A DNA stretch of 29,896 nucleotides from the IMG/VR virus record IMGVR_UViG_3300031760_000017; one strand, written 5' to 3'. The notes under the pieces were generated by a model that saw only the letters and a list, made by a program, of their open reading frames with translations, ran no database searches and was not told the origin of the DNA. Positions 3 to 23,818 of this stretch are shown piece by piece. The position numbers were made by a program, and so were the translations under genes. Source of the DNA: a virus. The first letter of the stretch is position 1, and every line of letters begins with the position of its first letter.

Positions 3-693
3 GTGGCTGCCGCTTTTGGTTGTAAAATGGTTCTTGGTTCAGATGCTCATTATCTTAAAAAAGAAGATAGATATGTACATAAAGCATATCTTAATTCAAA
101 AGGTGGAGAGCGTGAAGTTGATGCGTTTTATGAATACGCATATCTTCAAGATGAAAATGATATAAAAGAAAACATTTTACCATCTGAATTAAACTATGAT
201 GAGTTAGTTTTTAATTCATATGAAATTTATAATAAAATTAAAAATTATGATATTAGACATCAACAAACAATTCCAAAAGTGAAAGTTAAAGATTATCCAA
301 AAGAAGATGAAGAATTAAAAAATAAAAATCATAATGGAATAAGATTTTTTAATGATAAATATCCTATTTTAGCAAATATGAAAAAATCTGAAGATATTTA
401 TGAGAGATATTGGGTAAACGAATGTATTAATAAATTAGATAAACTACGTTTATATAATAATAAATACCTTTCTCGATTAGAAGAAGAAGCGGATATTAAG
501 AAAACTATTAGTGAAAAATTAGGAACTAATATGTTTAGTTATCCAATAACTCTTCAACATTACGTTGACCTCTTTTGGGAGTGCGGAAGCACAGTTGGTG
601 CGGGACGTGGTTCATCTTGCTCAGGGTTAAATCATTATCTTTTAGGCATTACTCAGCTTGACCCAATTAAATGGGATCTTCCGTTCTGGAGAT
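3..693 (+). CDS. DNA polymerase III alpha subunit (DnaE/PolC family), exon 1. It is 5'-truncated by the window edge. It contains the PHP domain and the conserved GAGRGSSCSGLNHYLLGITQLDP...FWR stretch.
   Basis: The ORF 3..704 translation matches the DnaE PHP/palm motif GPGRGSAAGSLVAYxLGIT-DPL-FxxLFERFLN. The reading frame is broken after FWR by the intron. Exon 2 continues with YLNKERVELGDIDLDLC, which aligns with DnaE FLNPERVSMPDFDVDFC. Confidence 0.85.
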
Positions 694-1729
694 TAGAACT
701 TTAAGAAATAGTCTCCCTATACTGTGAAGTATAGTATAAAAAATTTTGTGAACTCTATTGCTCAGAGGTGTGTAAAGAACGTTAAGTATTTAGTAGGAAA
801 TGACTAATTAATCTTTATGCTAACAGGGGAGCCTTAGCAAGTAAAGTTGAAGGTAATCCAGTGCCAAGCCTATTATTAGGAAGGTGTAACGACTATCCGA
901 AAGGAGTAGGGCAGATGATGAGCTACTGCTCGAAGTGCAAAAATCTTTAAATATTTTCTACCACTTTGGTCAAAGTGGGATAAATTAATTAATCGAATTT
1001 TTATATATAATAGAGAGATATAGAAAGGAGATTAATAATATGTTAATCTATAAAATAACGAATTTAATAAATAATAAATGTTATATTGGTCAGACAATAA
1101 AAACTGCTGAATAGAGATGGAAAGAACATCAAAGTCATGCATTTGGCTCGCATTTAAATGATCAAAATAAAACTTTATATAAAGCAATAAGAAAATATGG
1201 TCTTGAAAATTTTACTTTTGAAGTTCTTCAAGATAATATTGAAACTTTTGAACAATTAGATAAGGCAGAAATTTATTGGATTGATTATTATAATAGTTTT
1301 GTAAAAGGATATAATGAAACTTTTGGTGGTCAACAATATCATAAAATTCTACCAAATAAAGAGATTATAGAAGATTATTACAAAACAAAAAGTGCTAGAA
1401 AAACTGCTTTAAAATTTGGAATAGATCATTCTACAGTAGATGACATTTTAAATCAAAATAATATTCCAAGATTCAGTTTTAGAGAAGCCACAGGAAAAAG
1501 AATTAAAATTTCAAAAGATGATTTTGAAAAAGATTTTAATTCAGTTAAAGATTGTGCTGAATGGTTTGTAGAAAATCAAATCTGCAAAACTAAAAATGTA
1601 GAAAGCGCAAGAGCTGGATTAAAAACTGCAAGATCATCTAAAGGAAATGGCTTATATTATGGTTATTTAATAGAAAATATTTAAAGAATAAGATATAGTC
1701 TGTGCCATTAGAAATAATGGAATTACACG
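694..1729 (+). mobile_element. Group I self-splicing intron in the DNA polymerase gene.
   Basis: The 5' exon end ggagaU (688-693) pairs with an internal guide gtctcc (711-716), including a U.G wobble at the splice site. Conserved R/S-like P7 elements gactatc (891-897) and aagatatagtct (1690-1701) are present. A P9-like hairpin ccatta..taatgg follows. The terminal omega-G at 1729 leaves the splice in frame (FWR-Y-LNKERV). An internal HEG has its own RBS. Confidence 0.8.
1040..1684 (+). CDS. GIY-YIG homing endonuclease encoded within the polymerase intron. It contains one in-frame TAG at 1112-1114.
   Basis: The N-terminus reads MLIYKITNLINNKCYIGQTIKTAE-TAG-RWKEH, the GIY..YIG...R..H motif as in I-TevI and Seg proteins. 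The RBS aaaggag lies 8 nt upstream. The C-terminal region is a basic DNA-binding tail. The TAG interrupts the motif and must be read through. Confidence 0.8.
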
Positions 1730-4356
1730 ATTTAAATAAAGAACGTGTTGAGTTAGGCGACATAGACTTAGATCTTTGCCCTTCAAAACGTCCATTAATT
1801 CTTCAAAAAATAAAAGAAGAACGTGGTCAGAATTTTAATAAAGATATTGATGATTTAAGTAGAAAAAACCTTGGTTGTACACTTATTGCGACTTTTGGTA
1901 CAGAAGGAACTAAATCAGCAGTATTAACAGCTTGCCGCGGTTACCGCTCAGAAGATTTTCCAGACGGGATTGATGTTGATACAGCTCAGTTTTTATCTTC
2001 TTTGATTCCAAGTGAAAGAGGTTTCTTATGGCCTCTTAAAGATGTCGTTTATGGAAATAAAGATAAAGATAGAAAACCAATTACGCCTTTTATTTCAGAA
2101 ATTAATTTATATCCTGGTCTATTAGATATTGCAATGGCGATTGAAGGATTGATAAATAAAAGGTCTAGTCATGCTTCTGGTGTTATTCTTTTTGATGAAG
2201 ACCCGTACGAGTTTGGATGTTTTATGAAAACTCCAAAAGGAGAAATTATAACTCAATGGGATCTTCATAAATGTGAAGCATGTGGCATGACAAAATATGA
2301 TTTCCTTGTAACAGAAGTTCAGGATAAAATTGTTCAAACAATTAAACTTCTTCAAAAAAATAATAAAATTGATAAAGACCTTTCTTTAAGAGAGGTGTAT
2401 GATAAATATCTTCATCCAGAAGTTTTACCTTTAAACGACGAAAAAATATGGAAAGCTCTTCAAAATAATAGCGTTTTAAATGTTTTCCAGTTTGATTCAG
2501 ATGTAGGATCACAAGCCGCAAAGAAAATTAAACCAACTAATATTCTTGAAATGGCGGATGCCAATGGTTTAATGCGTCTTATGACATCTGAGAAAGGCGA
2601 AGAGACGCCTATGGAAAAATATATTCGTTATAAAAATAATATCTTATTATGGTATCAAGAGATGAATCGAGCTGGATTAACAGATGAAGAGCAAAAAATT
2701 ATTGAACCATATTTCAAACAATCTTATGGAGTTCCGCCATCACAAGAGCAATTAATGAGAATGTTAATGGATAAGAATATTTGTAACTTCTCATTAAAAG
2801 AAGCTAATGCCGCACGTAAAATTGTTGGTAAAAAACAAATGGCAAAGATTCCTGAATTACATCAAAAAATCTTAGATACAGCTTCTAGTTCGTCTCTTGG
2901 TAAATATATTTGGAAATGCGGTGTTGGTCCTCAGATGGGATATTCGTTCTCTATTATTCACGCTCTTGCTTATTCTTTTATTGGAGTTCAAACAATTTAT
3001 TTAGCGACTAATTGGAATCCAATTTATTGGAATACCGCATGTCTAATTATTAATAGTGCTTCTCTTGAAGATGAAGATGACGATGAAGATGATGATGAAG
3101 ATAACACTAAAGATAAATCTACTGATTATTCTAAATTAGCAAAAGCTATTGGAGATATAACTTCAAAAGGAATTAAAGTATCATTAATTGATATTAATAA
3201 ATCTGGATATAGTTTTGAACCAGATGAAGAAAATAATGAAATTCTTTTTGGATTAAAAGGTGTTAATAAAATTGGCGGTCCAGTTATTGATAAGATTATT
3301 GGCGGTCGCCCCTACACTGGAATTATTGATTTTATGAATAGATGCCCGCTAAATAAAACTCAAATGATTTCATTAATTAAGTCAGGAGCTTTTGATAAGG
3401 TTGATAATAATTGGGCATCAGAAATCTGTAAAGAAAACCCAAGATATGCAATAATGGCGTATTATATATCAATAGCTAGTGAACCAAAGAAAAAATTAAC
3501 ATTACAAAATTTTAATGGATTATTAAAAAATAAATTAATTCCAGAAAGTTTACTTAAACAACAACAGATTTTTATATTTAATAAATTTCTTAAAGAAAAT
3601 AAAAAAGTTGGTAAATACTATGTTTTTGATGAAGGTTCTTTAAATTTTTATTCTTATTACTTTGATTTAAATGAATTAGATGTTATTAATGGAATTACTT
3701 GTATTCTTCAAAGTAGATGGGATAAAATTTATAAGAGAGAAATGGATGAAGTTAGAGGTTGGTTAAAAGAAAATCAAGAAGAGGTTTTAAATCAATATAA
3801 TAACTTATTATTTAAAGAAACTTGGAATAAATATGCAACTGGAAACGTTTCTGCTTGGGAGATGGAAAGTTTATGTTTTTATTATCATGAACATGAATTA
3901 CTTAATATTGATAATTATAAATATGGAATTGTAAACTTTTCATCTTTATCAGAAGAGCCAGTAGTTGATTATTTCTTTAAGAGAGGAGATAGAAAAATTC
4001 CAATCTTTAAATTATATAGAATTGCTGGAACAATTATTAGTAAAAATAATACTAAAGCATCTATCACCATTTTAACAACAGATGGAGTTGTAAATGTAAA
4101 ATTTACAAAAGAATATTATGCTATGTTTAATCGTCAAATTTCTGAAAAGCAACCAGATGGTACTAAAAAAGTATTAGAAAAAGGTTGGTTTTCTCGTGGT
4201 ACAAAAGTTTTAATCACAGGATTTAGACGAGAAGACACCTTTGTAGCAAAAACTTATAAAGCAACTCCTACTCATCAATTATATAGAATCATCAATGTAA
4301 ATGATAAAAAGATTACCTTAGAACATGAAAGGATAAACGCAAATGTAGAAGATTAA
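1730..4356 (+). CDS. DNA polymerase III alpha subunit, exon 2 (palm/fingers/OB region). It has an acidic low-complexity insert EDEDDDEDDDEDN at about 3058-3100.
   Basis: The ORF 1702..4356 (884 aa) has no in-frame TAG, TAA or TGA. It runs LNKERVELGDIDLDLCPSKR...GVILFDEDPY...QWDLHKCEACGMTKYDFL and has DnaE-like order. It ends with TAA. Confidence 0.85.
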
Positions 4357-20815: not shown

Positions 20816-21178
20816 TTACCACCCATACGCCGCCTTAAGAATATAATCATAATTTACACGTGCCTAATCCCAATAAGGAATAATAACTAATTTAATATCA
20901 TGATCTCGACAATACTATCTTTTTCTCATATCATTATACTGTTGTTTTCTTAATCCATTATAACCACCAAATTTATCTTTAGCTTCATAATGTTGAATTC
21001 CTTGAAATTCAATTAAAAAATCAATATTATGCTAATCATCAAAAACAGCAAAATCAAATCTTAATGGACGTCCGGTATTACTTACTAAATCTGGAAAAGA
21101 GTATTCTTCTACGAACTCTAAACCAGAATCTTGTAATATTTCTTCTATTTTAATTTCTCCTCTGGATGCTCGCATATT
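20816..21178 (-). CDS. Free-standing PD-(D/E)XK (Vsr/DUF559-like) homing-endonuclease-like protein (about 120 aa) with three in-frame TAGs.
   Basis: The motif RFDFAVFDD-TAG-HNIDFLIEFQGIQHY resembles the D...(D/E)...IEYDG.QH core of the Vsr/DUF559 endonuclease family. It is inserted between the terminase and portal genes with its own RBS gaaggag. Confidence 0.55.
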
Positions 21179-21236: not shown

Positions 21237-22641
21237 TTAATTTTGTGTAAAAAATAAAAAGTCTGATATATTTCTTTTTCTTCTTTTCTTATTTAATTCT
21301 TCTTCATAACGTATATAATAAAGTCCATAAATAAAAGCAGAAAATTTATCTTTTTTAATACCTCTATTACTTTGCTTTAAAATAATATTAACGCCCTAAT
21401 TTTCTTCTACAAGATTTAACATTTGCTATTTTAAAATAGATGTTAAAATAAAAGGACGTAAATATTCATTCCTTTCATCCATATTCATATTTTGTCCTTG
21501 TTTAGTAGACATCAATTTTGTTTTTGCTAAACTTTCATCTATTAAAAATCTAATTTTGCCACTAAACATTTGGGTTTGAGCATAACTATACGCTTCTGTA
21601 TTAATTGGTGCGTTAGCTTTTATTATATATAATATATCACGCTATGTTTCTGGAGTTACAAATTTTTTATATTCTGGATATTCATCTGTATTAAAAACTC
21701 CAAAAGGTGGTAAATACTATCCATCCGCAGTTTCTTGAGCTTTTATTAAATAATCAATTAAACCAACACCTAATCCATTACCGTCAATAGCAATTCGTTT
21801 AGGTTTATACTTATAATATAAGTGTTTTATATGAATACATTGAGTCTCAAAATGCTAAGCATCATAAGTATAAATATTAACAAGAGTCTTATGAGCAGCG
21901 CCTTGCACTTGCGGCGTTACCTTAAAAACACAAATTTCAGTTGTACATCCTATACGCCCAACGTCCACTCCAAATACATAATATGCGGTTTTAGAAGATC
22001 TTCCGCTATACTCATACTATGGTTGCAATAAAACTCGATATTTATCAAACTTCTCAGAAGAAAAGAAAGCATTTTCTACATCTCCTGACCAAATACTCCG
22101 ATATTCTCTATTAAAAGACTAATCATTAAATGTTCCTTGTAATCTTAATTGTTCAACAAAATCTTCATCTAATAATCCAGAAACAACAGGAGTTTCATAA
22201 GTTCCACCCATTATCATATACTAATCTGGATCAAGAATAGAATTAATCAAGATCTATATCAGTTTGTGATATGCGAATGAATTTTTCCATCCTGCGGTGG
22301 TAATATAGATCTGTGACTTATTAACATTTTCTTCCTTGTGGCGGCTGCCATCTGAAAGACGTCTATCAACGTTAGTAGTAGGAATGATAACTTCATTTAA
22401 AATATCCCCATCAATAAGAACACACTATTCCATTAATCCACCTGTTCGACGTTGACCTCTAGAAGATTGTCTTGCCGCAAGAATATCAATAGTTGAGCCA
22501 TTCTTAAAAACGTATTTTACATTGTCTTTTGATTTTGTAGAAACACCTCTGTCCCAATTAATTTCATCATTTAAACCAGGAATAAGTCTACATATCTACT
22601 AGATTTTCGCGACTGTAATCGAGGCTGCTTGCTACTTACCA
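21237..22641 (-). CDS. Terminase large subunit, exon 2 (ATPase remainder plus nuclease domain). It has about 13 in-frame TAGs.
   Basis: It starts GK-TAG-QAASITVAKI (Walker A continuation). It includes FKNGSTIDILAARQSS (compare T4 gp17 LDNGSSIGAYASS). GGLME-TAG-CVLID may be Walker B. The nuclease motifs YYVFGVDVGRIGCTTEICVF and IAIDGNGLGVGLIDYL are present. Confidence 0.8.
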
Positions 22642-23567
22642 CCTGTGGTTACAAACAAATGTGAGTTAGGATATAAAATGCATCTTATCATTAATGCCAT
22701 CATTGACAAAAAAGACTTTGAATAAGCTACTTCTATTTAATATAATTCGTTAAATTATATTCGTATATACGCTCTATGTTCCCATAGAGATTAGACTATA
22801 TCATCATCCTTTAAACTTGGAAGTAAAGGAGCCTACCGCTTCGAGGAAACTTTTCCTCTACTCTCTTTCGAGATAGTCGTTGAACTTTTTATTTATAAGT
22901 AAAAGTTTTTCTTTCCGCTTTACCTAACGGAGTGTCTATATCTTTAGTAAGATAAGTCCAAGTTTCTCTTCTTCTTATTTTAGCTATAAAGCTTCTTACA
23001 GGAAAGCCAGTGATTTTAGAAATTTCTTTATCAGTATATTTATTACTTTTTAATAAATCTATTACCAACTTTGCATCTTTTTCAGTATAATGAGATAGAT
23101 TAGTTTTTTCTCCTTGTAAATATGAGAAATCAGTTAATCCAGTTTTTATGGCGTGGTGTATATTTTCTTGTGAAGTTACCCACTATAAATTATCTAATAC
23201 GTTATTCTCTTTATTACCATCTATATGATTTATTTGTAATTTTTCCATTCCTTCTATCGGTTTTAATAACATCATTAATAATCTATGATATTGAATAGAT
23301 GTTGTCCCCCCGCCTTTTTTCATTAAACTTACTCTCATATAACCATTATGATTTTTATTTATTTTAATATAATTTCCTGTATTGACATTACGAATTTTAC
23401 CCGTGTCATCAATAACATAACAGTCTTTAATATCAGGGTAGAGATCGCTAATTCTCTTCTCCATAAAAATCTCCTTATAAATAACTTAGCTGCTGATAAT
23501 CCGTTCTGGACTTCCCAGCAATTCAATAGGTTTCCTTTGAGAATATTACTATTCTCACCCCGCACTC
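22642..23567 (-). mobile_element. Group I intron in the terminase large subunit gene, just upstream of the Walker A lysine. The junctions are uncertain by a few tens of nt.
   Basis: Exon 1 reads ...FYQRVFLRIVMRHRYVYATFPRR and then breaks. The frame resumes about 0.9 kb downstream at (I)GK. The intron carries an HNH ORF with its own RBS. On the minus strand it has the same R/S-like elements as the polymerase intron: aacgactatc (plus 22872-22878) and gatatagtct (plus 22794-22803). A P9-like hairpin is present. A G precedes the proposed 3' splice site and a U ends exon 1. Confidence 0.7.
22889..23464 (-). CDS. HNH homing endonuclease (HNH_3 type, about 191 aa) inside the terminase intron. It has one in-frame TAG.
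   Basis: NHNGYMRVSL...QYHRLLMMLL...INHIDGNKENNVLDNL-TAG-WVTSQENIHHA matches the H-N-H motif (HxDGNxxNN...NLxW.T..EN). The RBS aaggagat is present. The track ORF 23183..23464 is the N-terminal part up to the TAG. Confidence 0.8.
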
Positions 23568-23818
23568 ATTCTACGGGGGAATGTTGCATATACGTATCTA
23601 TGTCTCATAACTATCCGCAAAAAAACTCTTTGATAAAAAAGAAATTCAAAAGTACTATCTTTACCTTTAATAAAATCAACAAAAATATCTGGATACTATC
23701 TAAAATAAGCAATAAGATCTCTTAATTGATCCATATCTTGTAAAAGTCTTTCTTCTGATATTCCTTGCTTTCGATATTCTCTTTCAGAAGTTATTTGTAG
23801 TAATTCTTTTAACTTCAT
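23568..23818 (-). CDS. Terminase large subunit, exon 1 (N-terminal about 83 aa). It has one in-frame TAG.
   Basis: The ATG overlaps the upstream TGA stop (ATGA). The sequence runs MKLKELLQITSERE...FYQRVFLRIVMRHRYVYATFPRR and leads into the Walker A motif. Confidence 0.7.

Follow-up and report, generated by a model that had tools for sequence, protein, structure and literature searches.

The terminase gene of Lactobacillus phage LL-H contains a group I intron. Phage terminase genes are established targets of introns (PMC11878797; PMC3984707), and in the Bastillevirinae group I introns have been found in the genes for the terminase large subunit, some of which contain two or three (PMC11878797). 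A homologue of the gene described here, in Enterococcus phage EF1 (MF001358.1), is interrupted three times, by introns whose P, Q, R and S elements are those of the intron described below; an HNH gene is carried by one of the three. The DNA analysed here, a stretch of 29,896 nucleotides (nt) from IMG/VR virus record IMGVR_UViG_3300031760_000017 (hereafter the window), was found to have a group I intron of 845 nt, carrying an HNH homing endonuclease gene, within the P-loop of its large terminase gene. Group I introns with homing endonucleases are known in phage terminases, and the basic finding adds one member to them. The new elements are the P-loop insertion site, which is shared by none of the compared terminase introns (Bastillevirinae, EF1 and LL-H), and the lack of a canonical splice junction, that is, one with cleavage at a U.G pair and a 3'-terminal G. 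The three introns of EF1 are located elsewhere in the gene and, unlike this intron, each can be given a canonical U/G junction.

The ribozyme resembles the td intron of phage T4 (group IA2). The core (AACGACUAUC...GAGUAG and GAUAUAGUCU) is very similar, and both introns have P7.1/P7.2, P9.1/P9.2, a UAACGA-type P9.2 loop and an endonuclease open reading frame (ORF) in the P6 loop, with RNA structure around the ORF start. The td intron differs in its canonical G end, in encoding the GIY-YIG endonuclease I-TevI rather than an HNH enzyme, and in its host gene, thymidylate synthase. The endonuclease itself is homologous to I-HmuI (PDB 1U3E) of the DNA polymerase intron of Bacillus phage SPO1; both elements are group I introns in essential genes of phages of Gram-positive bacteria, although the host genes differ, the terminase intron endonuclease contains a recoded TAG, and its nicking activity is a prediction. 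An in-frame reassigned stop codon inside the homing endonuclease gene of a group I intron is also a feature of the TGA-recoded 'Agate' phages, for which it was proposed to delay the endonuclease until late infection (Borges et al., bioRxiv 10.1101/2021.08.26.457843). In the present case, unlike the Agate one, the codon is TAG, which in the clade of the window apparently specifies Glu rather than Gln.

A group I intron within the terminase P-loop

The large terminase is encoded on the minus strand of the window and is of the YonF/SPbeta-E3 type. It matches phrog_2 (9e-20) and no Pfam family, and is 43-45% identical to the terminases annotated for Enterococcus phage H1 and Geobacillus virus E3. 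An uninterrupted gene on a human faecal contig has 73% identity to it. Exon 1 (23573..23818, minus strand; ATG at 23818-23816) aligns with residues 1-82 of uninterrupted homologues and ends in ...TTC CCC CGT, encoding F-P-R at 23581-23573. A sequence-only reading of this DNA, made before any database search, had ended exon 1 at ...YVYATFPRR, followed by a TGA, in agreement with the frame, which runs from ...YVYATFPR through RMSAG to TGA. Exon 2 (21237..22727, minus strand; stop codon at 21239-21237) starts with GCT TAT TCA AAG (A-Y-S-K, 22727-22716), and the P-loop of the terminase, PRAYSKS, is a Walker A motif whose lysine codon is the AAG at 22718-22716 (FPRAYSKSFL in uninterrupted homologues). 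The earlier placement of this lysine at GK-TAG is not upheld, GGK-TAG being a separate conserved motif ~75 nt downstream which reads GGK-E-QAAS in standard-code homologues.

The intron (22728..23572, minus strand) comprises the DNA that is absent from uninterrupted alleles, and separates the codons for Arg and Ala in the P-loop (F-P-R/A-Y-S-K-S, the slash marking the point of insertion or joining here and below). In the uninterrupted homologue L001 the same place reads ...YVYATFPRAYSKSFLSMM... (DNA CCG CGT GCT TAT TCT), and 37 uninterrupted relatives read [PT]RA[YF]SKSF with the codons CG(T/C) GCN. The interval given for the insert by the sequence-only reading, 22642-23567, had taken in 86 nt of exon 2 and lost 5 nt at the 5' end, the insert being 23572-22728. 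With the boundaries corrected, the terminase, a standard phylogenetic marker, can be annotated as one 578-amino-acid (aa) protein in this clade and not as fragments.

No match to Rfam was obtained over the whole window at the gathering threshold, a null result which was resolved by a permissive local search together with an orthologue of the intron lacking the ORF. The window copy matched RF00028 in its 3' half at 39.9 bits (E = 2e-8), below the curated cut-off of 50 bits because the 576-nt ORF splits P6, and the ORF-less copy (L049) matched over the full model length at 100.9 bits. The covariance-model search proposed earlier as a check has in this way found a group I fold, and chance is excluded as an explanation of the match.

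The fold was drawn by hand (P1, P2, P3-P9, P7.1, P7.2, P9.1, P9.2 and P10) and tested on an alignment of ten copies, in which 99.1% of 820 cells (82 pairs) are paired. Compensatory double changes were observed at 11 pairs, located in P2, P7.2, P8, P9.1 and P10, as against 0-1 in slid controls, and 0/500 shuffles reached the observed value. P1, P4, P7, P7.1 and P9 are invariant and fit the fold, but covariation gives them no test.

All four classical elements are found in the insert, namely P (AATTGCTGGGAAG, 23523-23511), Q (TATCAGCAGC, 23498-23489), R (GTTCAACGACTATC, 22885-22872) and S (GATATAGTCT, 22802-22793). The internal guide sequence (23558..23571, minus strand, as are all elements of the intron) consists of GAAUGAGU (23571-23564), which pairs with the start of exon 2 as P10, and GCGGGG (23563-23558), which pairs with CCCCGU (23578-23573) to form P1 with a U.G at the splice site. 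The P2 hairpin (23538..23557) has a GUAA loop and compensatory double changes at 4 of its 8 pairs. It is followed by a segment (23489..23530) which includes the P and Q consensus and contains the P3 5' strand (23530-23525), P4 (23521-23515/23496-23490) and P5 (23511-23508/23502-23499). The 3' half of the catalytic core (22793..22885) comprises the R/P7 5' strand (22880-22873), P7.1 (22872-22863), P7.2 (22858-22843, with two compensatory pairs), the P3 3' strand (22837-22832), P8 and the S/P7 3' strand (22799-22793). Then come the P9, P9.1 and P9.2 hairpins (22740..22789, of which P9.1 and P9.2 occupy 22771-22740), with a GGAA loop on P9 (GAAA in the ORF-less copy) and 3 of 4 P9.1 pairs compensatory, and a 3' tail UAAAUAGAAGUA (22728..22739), the last base of which, A22728, is immediately followed by the Ala codon. 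P7 contains the guanosine-binding pair G22878-C22794 (context ACGACUAU/AUAGUCU), in agreement with the Rfam consensus and the sister introns. Extra helices are present between P7 and the P3 3' strand (P7.1/P7.2) and after P9 (P9.1/P9.2), as for subgroup IA, and we take the intron to be td-like, IA2. It is probably self-splicing as well as mobile.

The central claim of the sequence-only reading, that the large terminase is broken at its Walker A P-loop by a group I intron carrying an HNH gene, is supported by Rfam, covariation and Pfam. It is very improbable that the insert is instead a free-standing endonuclease gene splitting the terminase into two polypeptides which assemble after translation, although gene callers in public databases do start the exon 2 protein at MMALMIRC. 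The break falls inside the P-loop, leaving neither fragment with a complete Walker A motif; the ORF is flanked by a complete group I fold with covariation support; one copy is a ribozyme without the ORF; and the guide sequence covaries with exon 2. As to whether terminase homologues are naturally split at this position, which had been raised as a possible objection, the opposite was found, as the 37 relatives are uninterrupted and the interrupted copies carry the same ribozyme.

The splice junction

All ten copies read ...TTCCCCCGT/A GAAU(A/G)(A/U)G(U/C) GCGGGG ... AUA/G C(U/G/A) UA(U/C) UC, and every copy ends in ...UA before GC(U/G/A). The P1 helix (CCCCGU with GCGGGG), which had been recognised from the letters alone, is invariant in ten of ten copies, as is its wobble U23573.G23563, and Rfam aligns CGU and GCGGGG to the conserved splice-site U.G of the model. 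Three candidate junctions can be formulated: CGU/GCU, CGUA/CU, and a cut after the U combined with ligation after G22727. Of these only the first, CGU/GCU, restores the homologous protein (FPRAYSKS); with it A22728 becomes the last base of the intron, the Ala codon begins at G22727, and the terminal G is missing. The P-loop site allows no junction which is both canonical (U.G cut, terminal G) and yields the normal protein. The spliced products suggested earlier, FPRR(I) or one keeping GK-TAG, do not describe the junction.

A canonical U/G junction at the top protein score is available to five sister introns with clean anchoring (one in L036 at aa ~236, one in L029 at aa ~400 and three in Enterococcus phage EF1), whereas the same test finds none for the terminase P-loop intron; the anomaly is therefore not an artefact of junction calling. 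The controls are limited to these five, automated calling being unusable with overlapping BLAST segments (L037, L040, L043 and parts of L041 and L042), and the human-gut sister introns (L047 and others), which are without intron-less references, were left out of the comparison.

Several ways of recovering a canonical site were rejected. An assembly error in which one G of a GG was lost does not account for a single G common to ten distinct copies from independent metagenomes. As for another G serving as the terminal base, none occurs in the last 20 nt outside the window copy, and the two extra Gs of the window are in the same wrong phase. An upstream U as 5' splice site would delete F-P-R and would be without a P1 partner. 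No junction variants were found in IMG/VR, and L075, considered as one, was a chance match in GC-rich DNA.

From the sequences compared, the chances that the CGU/GCU junction, with the intron ending in A22728, is the one used are put at about even (a probability of roughly 0.5). Exogenous guanosine would attack after U23573, the U.G wobble closing P1, and the freed exon 1 would then be joined to G22727, guided by an 8-base-pair (bp) P10 (GAAUGAGU with GCUUAUUC) stacked directly on P1. The product would restore the invariant PRAYSKS P-loop, with the predicted junction CGUGCUUAUUC (also ACATTCCCCCGTGCTTATTCAAAG), and helix register, not a terminal guanosine, would choose the 3' splice site. On inspection, P10 directly abuts P1 in the sister introns of the terminase gene also.

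The residue after the P-loop Arg is Ala in 37/37 uninterrupted relatives and in 113 of 115 database homologues (Gly in the other 2), and distant YonF-type terminases have Gly or Ala (TRGSSKS, TRGTSKS, SRGISKT and TRAFSKS). The guide sequence is complementary to the contiguous target TTCCCCCGT/GCTTATTC, and its covariation with exon 2 appears to favour CGU/GCU. The pair between guide nt 7 and exon 2 nt 3 is A-U in 8 copies, U-A in L071 (GCA) and U.G in L064 (GCG), and that between guide nt 9 and the first G of exon 2 is U.G in 9 copies and C-G in L057.

This evidence bears also on the CGUA/CU junction, in which the 5' cut would fall after A23572, G22727 would be the terminal base of the same intron, and exon 2 would begin at C22726. 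The product CGU-ACU-UAU (...CCCCGTACTTATTC...) would read PRTYSKS, with Thr in place of Ala. Such splicing would keep the terminal-G rule and the normal guanosine pocket, would be in frame in ten of ten copies, would still have P1 (CCCCGUA with UGCGGGG) abutting P10 (CUUAUUC with GAAUGAG in the window and GAAUAAG in most copies), and would give a 3' end, AUAG/C, like the AAUG/C of the td intron. It is nevertheless considered unlikely, because the cut would lie one base downstream of the conserved U.G which the Rfam model aligns as the splice-site pair, and because the guide C of L057, which is Watson-Crick with G22727, would form an A.C mismatch with the first intron base at the cut. Thr (or Ser) follows the P-loop Arg in 0 of about 165 homologues (32 to 96% identity), and neither CGTACT nor a one-base-shorter form was present in the terminase alleles searched. 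Furthermore, A23572 never mutates to G, though under a Thr junction a G would restore Ala.

A number of points weigh against ligation after A22728. Group I introns are generally taken to end in guanosine without exception. This terminal G acts as the leaving group in exon ligation (review PMC3984707), its replacement by C was found to abolish ligation in other introns (PMC13011429), and no report of a natural group I terminal base other than G was found in the literature searched. The guanosine-binding G-C in P7 is unchanged and identical to that of sister introns that end in G, and the sequence offers no explanation of how an A would be accepted. A22728 is invariant although one substitution, A to G, would be enough for a canonical end; P1 and P7 are constant in all copies, so that covariation gives no test of them; and G22727 could dock in the pocket, at the cost of one wobble pair, to give a frameshifted product.

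The last of these would be the outcome of fully canonical splicing, with a cut after U23573, ligation after G22727, and one base lost. The main RNA (...CCCCGTCTTATTC...) would then be out of frame (FPRLIQSLFCQ-stop), a minor alternative product or an unknown form of correction would be the sole source of functional terminase, and the arrangement might throttle expression. All copies have both the U.G wobble and a G ahead of exon 2, without variation, and phage terminase genes with group I introns are documented to undergo exon skipping and other forms of mis-splicing (PMC11878797). However, every copy would meet a stop 9 codons past the junction, in the gene for an essential protein; the endonuclease gene has stayed intact and compensatory changes have been retained as the lineage diversified; one exon 2 protein cluster alone has 273 member sequences; and no slippery site restoring the frame before the Walker A lysine was found on reading the sequence. 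Frameshifted splicing is accordingly regarded as more doubtful still than the Thr junction. Junction reads of these rival types would be CGUACUUAUUC or CGUCUUAUUC.

If the CGU/GCU junction is indeed used, a stable natural lineage would ligate after a 3'-terminal adenosine while keeping an ordinary guanosine pocket, with P10 stacked on P1 picking the 3' site; this further proposal is tentative, and is given slightly less than even odds. Ten diverged copies cannot jointly satisfy a U.G cut, ligation after a terminal G and an intact protein, and, no matter which of the three is relaxed, the case is a test of how far the 'universal' splice-site rules constrain a natural ribozyme.

The endonuclease gene and predicted homing

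The P6 loop contains a gene for an I-HmuI-like HNH homing endonuclease of 191 aa (22889..23464, minus strand). It matches the Pfam families HNH_3 (35.6 bits, cut-off 24.8) and NUMOD4 (24.0 bits, cut-off 23.4), phrog_59 (1e-33), and, over residues 15-116, I-HmuI of phage SPO1 (E = 1.6e-13). An AAGGAG box ends 6 nt upstream of the ATG, and the HNH_3 endonuclease with its own ribosome-binding site which the sequence-only reading had described is thereby substantiated. The ORF is intact, with 181 or 191 aa, in 9/10 copies, the remaining copy being without it. There is an in-frame TAG at 23185-23183, and every ORF-bearing copy has one TAG, at NL-TAG-WVT.

The 5' strand of P6, UUAUUUAUAAG (23474..23484), overlaps the AAGGAG ribosome-binding site and forms a perfect 11-bp stem with CUUAUAAAUAA, which consists of the final codons and the stop of the gene (22899-22889). 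This stem is invariant in the 9 ORF-bearing copies, and covariation therefore gives it no test. By analogy with td, the P6 pairing could restrain translation of the endonuclease; in the mechanism proposed here, the stem, which joins the ribosome-binding site region to the stop region, and the recoded TAG probably both do so.

In scans of related contigs from rumen and gut metagenomes, ten distinct copies of the insert were identified, all at the Arg/Ala codon boundary. There are thus 10 intron-bearing and 37 uninterrupted alleles at one site, the former all with the same ribozyme, and the exact target TTCCCCCGTGCTTATTC (TTCCCCCGT/GCTTATTC) is uninterrupted in 15 further terminase alleles. Such a mixture of occupied and empty alleles at a single position among close relatives is what a homing element leaves in a population, and on the evidence of these alleles the intron is a mobile one. 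The endonuclease would cut or nick intron-less terminase alleles at TTCCCCCGT/GCTTATTC, and repair would copy the intron in.

The ORF-less copy is 273 nt long (L049 about 4024-3752, minus strand; equivalent to L041 and L059), has a longer P5 region, and has a short hairpin at P6 where the other copies have the endonuclease gene. As a compact natural ribozyme it is suited to in vitro work.

TAG as a sense codon, and other inserts

Long reading frames are obtained in the window only when TAA and TGA are the sole stops, with TAG read as sense. The 14 TAGs of the terminase gene face Glu in standard-code homologues in 11/14, 10/14, 7/14 and 7/14 cases, and Gln at most once. When 29 alleles are aligned by codon, columns with TAG also contain GAA (37/39) or GAG (28), and rarely CAA (6) or CAG (3). 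Counting was extended to columns in which one residue is conserved, in the terminase, the portal gene (20783-19215, minus strand; phrog_2739) and the upstream gene of 446 aa (25155-23818, minus strand). TAG occurs in 22/32, 8/18 and 19/25 conserved-Glu columns of these genes, respectively, as against 0/15, 2/21 and 1/15 conserved-Gln columns (combined, 49/75 against 3/51; Fisher p = 4e-12). These counts suggest that TAG specifies Glu in the clade of the window, which is not code 15 (TAG as Gln). The first exon of the polymerase gene (3-701, plus strand) has no TAG in the window or in 77 relatives (L125-L204), and is unusable as a replicate of this codon test.

In the related phage Phass-1 (OQ749652.1), placed by NCBI in a 'code 15 clade', TAG falls on the Gln of GGKE-Q-AAS and ILKE-Q-M, whereas in the window it falls on the neighbouring Glu. 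Searches of papers on recoded phages returned only TAG-to-Gln, and no report of TAG-to-Glu in phages was found in the literature searched. If confirmed, TAG as Glu matters for gene prediction in gut and rumen viromes, and its reading as Glu in the window and Gln in Phass-1 would mean that one stop has been reassigned in two ways among related phages.

Phass-1 possesses three different tRNA(CUA) genes (L123:12445-12610 and L124:5747-5820), one of which is 88 nt long with an extra segment after the anticodon stem, and all three have a weak 1-72 pair and G73, that is, Gln-like acceptor ends. No suppressor tRNA or tRNA(CUA) was detected in the window, or within 10 kb of either window end in 98 related loci (1.48 Mb of flanks). 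A 130-kb contig of the window's clade (IMGVR_UViG_3300021431_000004, L275:3273-6639) has an array of 12 tRNA genes including a tRNA(CUA) at 4138-4213, ~0.8 kb downstream of tRNA-Glu(UUC) with tRNA-Lys and tRNA-Trp between them; overall similarity gives no assignment of the amino acid of this L275 tRNA(CUA). TAGs are many in the terminase, portal and endonuclease genes and are confined to a subset of genes, as described for the late genes of other recoded phages.

The DNA polymerase gene of the window is also interrupted, by an insert at about 690-1745 (plus strand) with a GIY-YIG ORF at 1040-1684 (Pfam 5.5e-8) which has its own in-frame TAG. Its Rfam matches are weak and partial (21.8 and 16 bits), and it is group I-like. 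As had been noted earlier (aacgactatc and gatatagtct), this insert and that of the terminase have elements in common; outside the ORFs these are only AACGACTATC (22881-22872) and GATATAGTCT (22802-22793), which form the P7 strands and belong to the R and S consensus common to group IA introns. The P and Q regions differ, and the ORF lies in P6 in the terminase intron and between the P8 region and the P7 3' strand in the polymerase intron. By these comparisons the inserts are two group IA introns and not one family with swapped endonuclease genes. The earlier assignment of both to the same family does not hold, and no evidence was obtained for the endonuclease shuffling on one intron backbone which it had suggested.

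The minus-strand gene order includes the portal, a small homing-endonuclease-like ORF and the large terminase. The small ORF (119 aa, 20816-21172, minus strand), situated between the other two, has in-frame TAGs and matches the homing-endonuclease families phrog_9084 (3e-28) and phrog_559 (2e-26); it is a third endonuclease-like gene of the window, in this instance apparently free-standing.

In this phage group introns are concentrated in the terminase gene, where about six further positions are occupied by inserts of 250-1,100 nt, among them about aa 113, 230-240, 293, 343 and 400 (L029, L036, L037, L040, L041, L042, L043, L045 and, in phage EF1, L002). Some alleles have three or four inserts at once (L041), EF1 having three. 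In addition, human-gut phage contigs of 65-98 kb (L047, L050-L052, L054, L055, L058, L060, L062, L066, L067 and L073) carry introns in other genes which share with the terminase intron an identical P7-P9 segment of 31 nt and have different 3' ends. Judging by this identity, the same ribozyme module seems to circulate between unrelated gut phage groups.

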